Source: a virus (taxonomy: Duplodnaviria; Heunggongvirae; Uroviricota; Caudoviricetes). From it: a DNA stretch of 6,571 bases. Shown here piece by piece: positions 1 through 6,571 of the stretch. Below the pieces are notes generated by a model. It had not been told where the DNA came from, did not search any database, and saw nothing but the letters and a program-made list of their open reading frames with translations. A program made the position numbers and the translations under genes. Location of the stretch: the IMG/VR virus record IMGVR_UViG_2563366935_000003. One strand, 5' to 3'. Numbering within the stretch: the stretch's first letter is position 1; each line of letters begins with the position of its first letter.

Positions 1-53
1 AAGCAGAAAAAGCTTATTATGCTTCCATCGGAAACGATGATCTGGCAGCCTGA
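1..53 (+). CDS. IS629 transposase OrfB, C-terminal fragment (partial at window start)
   Basis: Same frame and sequence as the C-terminus of the 296-aa OrfB at 3503-4393 (...[16 protein letters not shown]); stop TGA at 51-53. Confidence 0.85.
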   Translation, partial: AEKAYYASIGNDDLAA

Positions 54-95
54 GTTCACAGATAAAACACTCTCCAGGAAACCCGGGGCGGTTCA
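1..95 (+). mobile_element. IS629 (IS3 family) 3'-terminal fragment, truncated by the window edge; ends with the right inverted repeat ...GGAAACCCGGGGCGGTTCA
   Basis: Bases 1-95 are identical to 4341-4435 of the complete copy in this window; the terminal IR ends at 95. Confidence 0.9.
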
Positions 96-3001: not shown

Positions 3002-3125
3002 CCATCCGTGGCTGCCAGTTATTGAGCTTCTTTTTGTGATGCCTGTGCGACTCTGGTGAGCGATTGTGTGACCGTACTGATCGCTCTGTCATATGCTGTG
3101 CTACCTTTTGGCGTATTTGCCAGAC

Positions 3126-3150
3126 TGAACCGCCCCGGGAATCCTGGAGA
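3126..3150. repeat. IS629 left terminal inverted repeat
   Basis: TGAACCGCCCCGGGAATCCTGGAGA is an imperfect inverted match to the right end at 4411-4435. Confidence 0.8.
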
Positions 3151-3179
3151 CTAAACTTCCTGAGAAAGAGGTAAACAGG

Positions 3180-3506
3180 ATGACTAAAAATACTCGTTTT
3201 TCCCCCGAAGTCCGTCAACGGGCAGTCCGTATGGTTCTGGAAAGTCAGAGCGAATATGACTCACAATGGGCGACAATTTGTTCCATTGCTCCAAAGATTG
3301 GCTGTACGCCGGAGACTCTGCGTGTCTGGGTTCGCCAGCATGAGCGGGATACCGGGGGCGGTGATGGAGGGCTCACCACCGCTGAACGTCAGCGTCTGAA
3401 AGAGCTGGAACGTGAAAAGCGTGAACTGCGCCGCAGTAACGATATCCTTCGCCAGGCTTCCGCTTATTTTGCGAAGGCGGAGTTCGACCGCCTCTGGAAA
3501 AAATGA
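3180..3506 (+). CDS. IS629 OrfA (108 aa; helix-turn-helix / leucine-zipper transposase subunit)
   Basis: [65 protein letters not shown]... is recognised as IS629/IS1203 OrfA; SD AGAGG upstream of the ATG. Confidence 0.9.
3497..3503 (+). other. Candidate programmed -1 ribosomal frameshift site (A-run GAAAAAA) at the OrfA/OrfB overlap
   Basis: OrfB lies in the -1 frame relative to OrfA and overlaps it by 4 nt; six consecutive A (3498-3503) sit in the last two OrfA codons. IS3-family elements make an OrfAB fusion transposase by -1 slippage on A-rich heptamers. Confidence 0.4.
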
Positions 3507-4393
3507 TGCCACTGCTGGATAAGCTGCGTGAGCAGTACGGGGTCGGACCGCTATGCAGCGAACTGCATATTGCCCCGTCAACGTATTACCACTGTCAGCA
3601 ACAGCGACATCATCCGGATAAACGCAGTGCCCGTGCGCAGCGCGATGACTGGCTGAAGAAAGAGATACAGCGCGTATACGATGAAAATCACAAGGTATAC
3701 GGTGTGCGTAAAGTCTGGCGTCAGTTGTTACGGGAAGGTATCAGAGTGGCCAGATGCACTGTGGCACGTCTCATGGCGGTTATGGGACTTGCCGGTGTTC
3801 TCCGGGGTAAAAAGGTCCGTACGACCATCAGCCGGAAAGCCGTTGCCGCAGGCGACCGCGTAAACCGTCAGTTCGTGGCAGAACGACCTGACCAGCTGTG
3901 GGTGGCTGATTTTACTTACGTCAGCACATGGCGGGGCTTCGTCTATGTGGCGTTCATCATTGATGTGTTTGCCGGATACATCGTGGGGTGGCGGGTCTCA
4001 TCGTCCATGGAAACGACATTCGTGCTGGATGCACTGGAGCAGGCGTTATGGGCCCGTCGACCGTCCGGCACGGTCCATCACAGTGATAAAGGTTCTCAGT
4101 ATGTATCGCTGGCCTACACACAGCGGCTTAAGGAAGCCGGATTACTGGCATCAACAGGAAGTACAGGCGACTCGTATGACAACGCGATGGCGGAGAGCAT
4201 CAATGGTCTTTACAAAGCGGAGGTAATACACCGTAAGAGCTGGAAAAACCGTGCAGAAGTGGAACTGGCCACACTCACGTGGGTGGACTGGTATAACAAT
4301 CGACGATTGCTGGAAAGGCTGGGCCATACTCCTCCGGCAGAAGCAGAAAAAGCTTATTATGCTTCCATCGGAAACGATGATCTGGCAGCCTGA
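3503..4393 (+). CDS. IS629 OrfB (296 aa; DDE/RNase H-fold transposase catalytic domain)
   Basis: [30 protein letters not shown]... recognised as IS629 OrfB; IS3-family catalytic-core signatures are visible ([24 protein letters not shown]). Confidence 0.9.
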
Positions 4394-4410
4394 GTTCACA
4401 GATAAAACAC

Positions 4411-4435
4411 TCTCCAGGAAACCCGGGGCGGTTCA
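4411..4435. repeat. IS629 right terminal inverted repeat
   Basis: Reverse complement TGAACCGCCCCGGGTTTCCTGGAGA matches the left end. Confidence 0.8.
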
Positions 4436-5593
4436 CATGATGATTGAGTCTGCGTCCTGTTCAATGCTTCCTGAATCACGCAAATCTGCGTTTGTCGGGC
4501 GTTTGTTTGGTCGCTTCTCAACATCGCGTGAAAGCTGACTCAGGGAAATAACCGGTGTTTTCAGGTCTTTCGCCATCGCCTTCAGGCTTCCGGAGATGTG
4601 AGCAATTGCGAGGTCGTTGCGGTCTGCTTTCGGCTTCTCAATCAGGCCAAGATAATCCGCCATGATGAGTGAGAGGTTTGGATTTTCCTGTTTGTGCCGT
4701 TCTGCGATTGAGCGTATTTCTTCGACCGATAATCGCGAGGCATCGACTACCCATACATCCAAATCTGCAAGCTGACTCATGCCGTTAGCAACACGTGCCC
4801 AGCCCTCGTCATCCATCGATGCAGGATTTCGCAGTACGCTAACCGACATCCTCCCGGCGTTGGCAATGCTTCGCTCTGCAATCTGCAATGCGCTCATTTC
4901 CATTGAGAAAATCAATACCCCGCGCCGGACGTCAGAACCAGGAATAACGCGGCTTGCAACGCCTTCGGCAATCTTCAGCGCCAGTTCGGTTTTCCCCATA
5001 CCAGGACGAGCAGCGATTATCACCAGGTCTTCCGCGTTCATCCCTCCGGTGATGGCATCAAGTTCTTCGATTCCGGTCTTCAGGGTATCGGACTCTTCTC
5101 CGTTCCTCAGACGCCTGTCAAGCGTGTCAGTGTAGTCGGTGATGATTTCCCCTAACCGTACAGGTTTAACCTCGTCACGGGGCTTTCTGATGGCTGAGAG
5201 ACGTTTTACAAGTTCATCCATCGCCTGACTCGATGCGTCGATGGTTCCGCTTTGGATTGGTTCACGCATTTCATCCATGATTTCCAGCACCAGACGGCGG
5301 TGATAGTTATCCGCGACCATTCCGGCATATCCCTTCAGGTTTGCGGCGCTCGGGCAGTTTTTGCTGGTCATCAGGATTGACGTGAAATGCTCCTCTCCGC
5401 ACGCCTCGGCAACCATCAGCGCGTCGATTAGGTTTCTGTTTCTCGCCTGCTTCCGGATAACCTCGAAGGCTTTCCGGTAGAGCGGAATTGAAAACGCTTC
5501 CGGCTCCAGCGTTGCAAGAACGTCACTGGCGGTTGGAGTTAATCCACCAATCAGCAGGCCACCGATAACGCTCGCTTCGATATCCTGTCTCAT
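4433..5593 (-). pseudogene. Phage DnaB-like replicative helicase, 3'-truncated by IS629 (about 55-60 C-terminal residues missing)
   Basis: 386-aa translation with DnaB N-terminal domain, Walker A ([10 protein letters not shown]), Walker B (LIMADYLGL) and the motif [32 protein letters not shown]. Reading frame stops only 3 codons after EQDAD, using the TGA formed by the IS629 terminus (4433-4435), where E. coli DnaB has about 55 more residues. Confidence 0.85.
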
Positions 5594-6354: not shown

Positions 6355-6571
6355 TGAACCGCCCCGGGTTTCCTGGAGAGTGTTTTATCTGTGAACTCAG
6401 GCTGCCAGATCATCGTTTCCGATGGAAGCATAATAAGCTTTTTCTGCTTCTGCCGGAGGAGTATGGCCCAGCCTTTCCAGCAATCGTCGATTGTTATACC
6501 AGTCCACCCACGTGAGTGTGGCCAGTTCCACTTCTGCACGGTTTTTCCAGCTCTTACGGTGTATTACCTCC
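6355..6571 (-). mobile_element. IS629 3'-terminal fragment in inverted orientation, truncated by the window edge
   Basis: 6355-6571 is the exact reverse complement of 4219-4435 of the complete copy; the terminal IR begins at 6355 (TGAACCGCCCCGGGTTTCC...). Confidence 0.9.
6397..6571 (-). CDS. IS629 transposase OrfB, C-terminal fragment (minus strand, partial at window end)
   Basis: Reverse complement is identical to the 3' end of OrfB; stop codon is at 6397-6399 on the minus strand. Confidence 0.85.
   Translation of the reverse strand, partial: EVIHRKSWKNRAEVELATLTWVDWYNNRRLLERLGHTPPAEAEKAYYASIGNDDLAA

Follow-up and report, generated by a model that had tools for sequence, protein, structure and literature searches.

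The insertion sequence in the middle of the window (by which we mean the whole 6,571-nt stretch of DNA analysed here) carries two overlapping genes in different frames, and raises the question of where within their overlap ribosomes shift to make a fused transposase. The first-pass annotation had placed the shift on a run of six A's at the orfA/orfB junction, by the mechanism standard in the IS3 family. That reading is partly supported: the mechanism is the right one, but the site is the less well supported of two, and an annotated ALIL pseudoknot was overlooked. The frameshift region of IS629 is ordinary and already known, and nothing in it is new.

Positions 3126..4435 (+ strand) are a full IS629 of the IS3 family, and the assignment is sound. 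The copy is complete at 1310 bp and 99.9% identical in DNA sequence to E. coli copies, with one mismatch (3419), near-identity being judged against copies with a product called “IS3-like element IS629 family transposase” by NCBI; near-full copies (at least 80% coverage) occur in 3043 of the 5426 complete E. coli genomes. Its ends read TGAACCGCCCCGGG...CCCGGGGCGGTTCA, with the 5'-TG...CA-3' termini of the IS3 family, and form an imperfect 25-bp left terminal inverted repeat (IRL, 3126..3150, +), matching the reverse complement of the right end at 23 of 25 positions, and a right terminal inverted repeat (IRR, 4411..4435, +), identified by comparison with the left end. In the list of open reading frames, orfA (3180..3506, +) is a frame-0 gene of 108 aa with HTH_Tnp_1 (Pfam PF01527, E = 1.7e-11) and a leucine zipper, and orfB (3503..4393, +) encodes 296 aa from its ATG in the -1 frame, with HTH_21 and an rve integrase core (PF13276, 3.1e-18; PF00665, 8.3e-28); all three models score above their cut-offs on the orfA and orfB proteins. 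The DDE triad of OrfB lies at D136 (3908-3910), D195 (4085-4087) and E231 (4193-4195), with spacings of 58 and 35, so that the DD(35)E motif is intact and, with K at E+7, carries the catalytic signature of the IS3 family. IS629, IS3411 and IS1203, of the IS51-type group of E. coli and Shigella, share with the window copy the 1310-bp length, 25-bp imperfect repeats starting TGAAC, and an orfA of 108 aa and orfB of 296 aa in frames 0 and -1; the window copy differs in having G at 3419 (OrfA N80K) and in being without a flanking target-site duplication. In RefSeq, a copy one nucleotide away from this one is labelled “IS3 family transposase, programmed frameshift” and carries, at the same relative coordinates, an “AL1L pseudoknot” feature.

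The junction itself reads much as the first-pass annotation had described it, with an A-run in which AAA AAA are the final orfA codons and with orfB in the -1 frame. The span it had given, 3497-3506, is G + A6 + TGA, and the zero-frame codons at the end of orfA are TGG (3495), AAA (3498), AAA (3501) and TGA (3504); the distance between the two starts (3503-3180 = 323 = 3n+2) puts orfB in the -1 frame, as in the two-ORF elements of the IS3 family. Within the run (3498..3503, +) lies an in-phase A_AAA at 3500-3503 (“A4T”), which makes it a candidate for a second, clade-specific -1 site. Directly at its end, ATGA (3503..3506, +) overlaps the orfB start with the orfA stop in a junction of the termination-reinitiation type, suited to the production of free OrfB. 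The overlap of 4 nt claimed earlier is correct for ORFs defined by their ATG, but the interval that permits a -1 fusion is 67 nt long (3440..3506, +), since the orfB frame is open from 3440, after an upstream stop TAA at 3437; for genome scans this is a reminder that a far longer 0/-1 overlap can stand behind a 4-nt ATGA. These 67 nt contain exactly two in-phase slippery tetramers, U_UUU (3467-3470), 31 bases upstream of the A-run, and A_AAA (3500-3503).

By its statistics alone the run does not stand out. The two in-phase Z_ZZN tetramers observed in the overlap compare with 1.2 expected (P = 0.35 for at least two), which is chance level, and the 12 A6 runs counted on both strands of the window compare with 8.2 +/- 3.5 in shuffles, with no enrichment; shuffled versions of the 67-nt overlap, however, seldom contain an A6 run at any position (P = 0.003). 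The A6 run is real and is conserved within its own clade, and its presence alone is no evidence of function.

The conserved signal lies upstream. U_UUU (3467..3470, +; the “T4G” motif), formed in phase by the zero-frame Phe codon 3468-3470 and the U that precedes it, is the conserved, predicted -1 shift site, and is followed by a 5-nt spacer, GCGAA (3471..3475, +), which is constant at 5 nt in relatives and lies inside the 4-10 nt rule (PMC4066793). Stem-loop 1 of the ALIL structure comes next (3476..3492, +), with strands GGCGG (3476-3480) and CCGCC (3488-3492) around the loop AGUUCGA; it is delimited by the RF01497 alignment and RNAfold, and 97.6% of its cells are paired in 51 relatives. A U-run 5 nt before stem 1 is the classical geometry, and agrees with the in-phase motif 4-10 nt 5' of stem 1 that defines RF01497. 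A linker of 45 nt separates stem-loop 2 (3538..3577, +), delimited likewise by the Rfam alignment and RNAfold, which has a 6-nt internal loop, UCGGAC (3543-3548), and shows covariation in both of its helices. The predicted pseudoknot helix joins the two, with GUUCG of the apical loop (3482..3486, +) as its 5' side and CGGAC of the internal loop (3544..3548, +) as its 3' side, giving 5 bp in the window, one of them G.U.

Support for this structure comes from the covariance model, from folding and from the alignment of relatives. The Rfam model ALIL (RF01497) matches 3461-3577 over its full length (1-117) with 120.2 bits (gathering score 50; E = 1.1e-31), and its consensus opens with the conserved UUAUUUUGC, the start of the model being a conserved unpaired stretch, cGCuUAUUUUGC. 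Folded with RNAfold, stem 1 reaches -10.5 kcal/mol (z = -1.16, 22 of 200 shuffles as good) and stem-loop 2 (3537-3579) -18.2 kcal/mol (z = -2.6). On the 51-sequence alignment the full ALIL model pairs 91.3% of cells, where controls with the partners shifted by 1-3 columns pair 35-48%, and none of 500 shuffles reached the covariation observed. The loop/internal-loop helix is itself 97.6% paired over the 51 sequences, with compensatory changes at two of its five pairs (G-C to A-U in 5 sequences, C-G to U-A in 13). Judged by this pairing and covariation, the ALIL pseudoknot is real both in the IS629 family and in the window copy.

The arrangement is that of IS3411, for which Atkins et al. 2016 (PMC5009743) describe a stimulator whose stem 1 stands shortly 3' of the shift site and pairs with an internal loop that follows after another 44-104 nt; at least 27 other IS elements share an ALIL-like arrangement (PMC5009743), and the ALIL of IS3411 stimulates -1 frameshifting in vivo according to Mazauric et al. 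2008, as summarised in PMC5009743. As in the IS3411 stimulator (RF01497), stem 1 begins 5 nt past the tetramer and a 5-bp pairing joins loop and internal loop; the gap of 45 nt between stem 1 and stem-loop 2, and of 51 nt to the pairing partner, likewise falls inside the 44-104 nt range (PMC5009743). The difference lies in the helix sequence, which is GCUCG:CGAGC in the ALIL consensus but GUUCG:CGGAC in the IS629 lineage, with one G.U and one compensatory U-A pair. Given the position of an IS3411-type stimulator, only the U-run fits as the stimulated site.

Two further features of these loops deserve mention. The apical region of stem-loop 2 in the IS629 lineage contains CGAAC (3559-3563), a perfect complement of the stem-1 loop GUUCG, which could compete as a kissing partner with the internal-loop CGGAC and its one G.U pair. 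Three loci from Pantoea, Buttiauxella and Scandinavium (L004:339-463, L008:432-556 and L073:1457-1581) have the stem-1 loop GUACG, which leaves a mismatch (A opposite G) with CGGAC, and carry its perfect complement, CGUAC, 38 nt further 3', which may be a re-wired pseudoknot partner.

Relatives were collected by an OrfB scan of species-representative genomes, which gave 80 loci at 53-98% protein identity, spread from Enterobacterales to Terriglobia, Nitrosomonas, spirochaetes and others, and which collapse to 51 distinct junction sequences that are phylogenetically non-independent. At the homologous in-phase position, 50 of the 51 have U_UUY, and its distance from stem 1 is 5 nt in all relatives. 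The tetramer owes its first U to the synonymous third position of the Tyr or Phe codon before it, where T stands in 50 of 50 cases (TAT in 33, TTT in 17, TAC or TTC in none); the third position of the Phe codon itself varies (TTT 36, TTC 15). Conservation around the U-run is confounded by dual coding and RNA structure, and this wobble-position test is the only one that escapes the confounding. U_UUY is the sole in-phase tetramer of the overlap in 12 junctions, and in 10 further junctions it is accompanied in phase by an adjacent U_UUU and nothing else, creating the heptamer U_UUU_UUY. Substitution patterns bearing on the frame translated across 3470-3503 show nucleotides kept near-invariant by stem 1, and conserved residues in both frames of the variable part.

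We consider it likely that both tetramers are used, U_UUU with the ALIL pseudoknot as the main -1 signal and the A-run as a second, weaker and lineage-specific slip site. Ribosomal shifting at either site, and its proportions, we infer or take from the literature, site usage resting on comparative inference and on what Chen and Hu 2006 and Mazauric et al. 2008 are reported to have found. Under this dual-site model, transposase would be made by programmed -1 ribosomal frameshifting inside the 67-nt orfA/orfB overlap: tRNA-Phe on UUU at 3468-3470 would slip to 3467-3469 while the ALIL pseudoknot holds the ribosome, and this slip on the U-run would be the main, ancestral route to OrfAB. Ribosomes still in frame 0 would unwind stem 1 and reach AAA AAA UGA, where a small fraction may slip in turn, with tRNA-Lys moving from 3501-3503 to 3500-3502, UGA in the A site helping, and AUG (3503) as the next codon; the product would be a second OrfAB isoform of the same length. 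The A6 run also encodes the last two lysines of OrfA, and already-shifted ribosomes would read E-K there. The remaining ribosomes would terminate, and some of these would reinitiate at the overlapping AUG to produce free OrfB.

The predicted U-run and A-run fusions are both 404 aa long and differ at residues 98-107. Both fit the IS3-family transposase model NF033516, at 370.2 bits and 365.3 bits respectively (cut-off 160), and this fit, the RefSeq annotation and the 0/-1 frames bear out the earlier view that the mechanism is the standard IS3-family frameshift and not novel. For the common copy, the protein collection holds the U-run fusion on 379 contigs and the A-run fusion on 1; for the K80 variant it holds the U-run fusion (WP_432704309.1) and the A-run fusion is absent from it. 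Such contig counts, like the NF033516 scores, favour the U-run junction but mirror curation and annotation practice rather than biology, and we give them low weight. Chen and Hu 2006 reportedly assigned transposase activity to one of the two products of IS629, possibly the A-run product; if that product is the active transposase, the A-run matters more for the function of IS629 than its conservation suggests.

A stop codon follows the in-phase A_AAA directly, and an A site that is slow to decode favours slippage in the P site (“shifty stops”), which makes the A-run a plausible, if weak, -1 site and lends some colour to a reading in which the A6 run beside ATGA acts as the principal one, yielding active OrfAB by the standard A-run mechanism of the IS3 family. 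Chen and Hu 2006 reportedly found AAAAT to be one of two active -1 signals in IS629, the other being TTTTG, which give OrfAB and OrfAB', both said to be involved in transposition. NCBI has an entry for the A-run fusion, WP_085959878.1, under the name “IS3-like element IS629 family transposase”. A-rich motifs are, moreover, the commonest in IS3 and IS1 elements, and IS3-family elements make use of U_UU[U,C] as well as A_AAA (PMC4066793). We nevertheless regard a principal role for the A-run as unlikely, because the signal conserved in relatives is U_UUU (3467-3470) with its 5-nt spacer and ALIL. A_AAA at +33 occurs in 14 of the 51 junctions, all of them enterobacterial with OrfB at least 76% identical, and is missing from the other 37, though those retain U_UUY and ALIL. 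All 14 distinct enterobacterial junctions keep A6 even with three different stop codons following it, but both frames are coding there, which confounds the within-clade conservation.

The local context of the A-run is no more favourable to it. When combined with a pseudoknot, tetramers rank A_AAG >> U_UUC > U_UUU > C_CCU = C_CCC > A_AAA (Sharma et al. 2014, PMC4066793), so that A_AAA is the weakest of six active motifs; without a stimulator they stay near background, and stimulatory structures begin 4-10 nt past the motif (PMC4066793, from whose supplements IS3411 and IS629 are absent). The first-pass annotation had made its case for the A-run depend on a downstream structure, and none beyond shuffles was found in 3504-3540: no stimulatory structure lies 4-10 nt 3' of the run, the region folding at -8.6 kcal/mol (z = 0.06, 100 of 200 shuffles as good). 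The run sits in the linker of the pseudoknot, where stem 1 ends 5 nt before it and stem-loop 2 starts 35 nt after it. Nor is a perfect X_XXZ_ZZN heptamer present at the A-run, since the in-phase sequence is G_AAA_AAA, on which the P-site tRNA would have to re-pair with GAA, and only A_AAA is perfect. The programmed site, as a second lesson for genome scans, is not necessarily the slippery run closest to the stop.

Two candidate stimulators of the A-run were considered. The hairpin just 3' of it (a 6-bp helix of 3511-3516 with 3531-3536) is rejected: it lies in a region that folds no better than its shuffles, and helices in relatives fall in other registers. SD-like stimulators have their optimum at 10-14 nt, as known from dnaX and IS911 work. 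The SD-like GGAG at 3479-3482, which stands at a spacing of 15-17 nt from the run and is conserved as part of stem 1, is not supported in this role.

Compared with systems of the IS911, IS3, IS150 and dnaX type, which combine A_AAA_AAG or A_AAG with a hairpin or pseudoknot, IS629 shows the same logic: a 0/-1 overlap in which tRNA re-pairs on a homopolymeric motif, an RNA structure beginning 4-10 nt 3' of that motif and, as in the IS elements among them, an OrfAB fusion that is the transposase. It differs in that its stimulator serves the U_UUU tetramer and not an A-rich heptamer, and in that its A-run is without such a structure and has the stop codon directly after it.

How the second run of the dual-site model came about is suggested by the relatives. 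In most of them, on an ungapped alignment, orfA stops at the equivalent of 3501-3503 (GUGAUG, AAUGA) and an AUG stands at the equivalent of 3503-3505. The A-run is accordingly there because the ancestral orfA stop was replaced by AAA, which made OrfA one codon longer; an origin by 3-nt insertion was also considered and is ruled out by the same ungapped alignment, which shows substitution of the ancestral stop. Tentatively, and with doubts that slightly outweigh our confidence, we propose that the A6 run is an innovation of the enterobacterial IS629 clade, in which the change of the stop (UGA, at the 3501-3503 position) to AAA would have added a second slip site in the ALIL linker and so yielded two OrfAB isoforms of equal length, unlike at 10 residues between the leucine zipper and the catalytic domain, that may differ in their roles in transposition. 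The novelty of this proposal would be limited to how the run evolved and to its confinement to one clade, two products having already been published for IS629.

It is distinctly improbable, in our view, that the A6 run has no recoding role and reflects only dual coding (K-K in OrfA, E-K in shifted OrfAB) beside an ATGA that serves translational coupling for OrfB. Relatives without the run show TGATG, TAATG or ATGA at the ATGA site, from which the conserved feature would be the stop/start overlap, and GAA (Glu, -1 frame) and AAR (Lys, frame 0) are retained family-wide; the run stands at chance frequency in the window, and PMC5771124, citing Chen and Hu, states that IS629 produces OrfB and that this protein lowers transposition. 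Against this, the title of Chen and Hu 2006, on IS629, names two frameshift products, and with exactly two in-phase tetramers in the overlap the A-run is the sole candidate for the second. Coupling, furthermore, cannot explain the run in four relatives that keep A6 without an ATG. These (L005:100-224, L016:1457-1581, L017:1448-1572 and L021:1448-1572) read AAAAAATAGCCC at the junction, and in the lack of an ATG their OrfB sequences are expressible only as a frameshift fusion. Fusion by slippage of RNA polymerase on A6, in which an mRNA with one A too many would have orfB in the frame of orfA, can be set aside as extremely improbable, as six A's give very little slippage and a dedicated ribosomal stimulator is present upstream. 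IS elements known to depend on transcriptional slippage have longer runs, of about A8 or more. The use of transcriptional slippage by some IS elements is reviewed in PMC5009743.

With U_UUU and ALIL as the probable main signal and the A-run as a second site, the practical consequences concern mostly how the region is annotated and handled, and beyond correct annotation its importance is small. Among the forces that rearrange the genomes of pathogenic E. coli and Shigella, IS629 is a major one, and the recoding region sets the level of its transposase; frameshift mutants, constitutive OrfAB constructs or proteomic searches built on the A-run alone would miss U_UUU with ALIL and the alternative junction peptide.

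The first-pass annotation had further taken intact frameshift and catalytic motifs to imply that this copy is transposition-competent and may still be remodelling its locus. The copy does have its recoding signals, DDE triad and inverted repeats intact, but caution is called for on three counts: two properties of the copy, and the presence of three IS629 copies in the window, itself a P22-like prophage remnant. No target-site duplication of 3-4 bp is present at the copy, whose flanks (3120-3125 and 4436-4441) read ...CCAGAC to the left and CATGATG... to the right (GAC and CAT adjoining the ends); a copy placed at a recombination or deletion junction would be expected to lack the duplication, and the absence is a property of the copy and not of the family. 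The G at 3419, its sole difference from the commonest E. coli copy, makes codon 80 (3417-3419) AAG (Lys) for AAT (Asn), and among 49 relatives OrfA residue 80 is N in 38 and V in 8, with K found only in the window copy. Since residue 80 lies in the leucine-zipper core, which is used for OrfA/OrfAB multimerisation, N80K may affect activity.

Past IS-mediated rearrangement of the locus is evident. The three IS629 copies lie within 6.5 kb: beside the full one, partial copies cut by the window ends occupy 1-95 (+) and 6355-6571 (-), identical to the full copy at IS positions 1216-1310 and 1094-1310 respectively. To the right of the full copy, the ORF of a replicative helicase (4433-5593, -) reads into the IS end and stops there, at 386 aa compared with 458 aa in strain MS8345, and the nin genes that MS8345 has between an injection-protein fragment and the helicase are missing from the window. 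The full copy thus appears, from the arrangement of these sequences, to sit at an IS-mediated deletion or inversion junction. The cut helicase and missing nin genes thus speak for rearrangement in the past, and present competence is not established. As to the setting, sar RNA, which in phage P22 is the antisense RNA of the immI region, is matched over its full length at 119-185 (+; RF00262, 83.9 bits), and the annotation of the matching MS8345 prophage lists Arc-family genes, a ClpP-like gene and a YafO-family toxin gene, which together show the window to be a remnant of a P22-like prophage.
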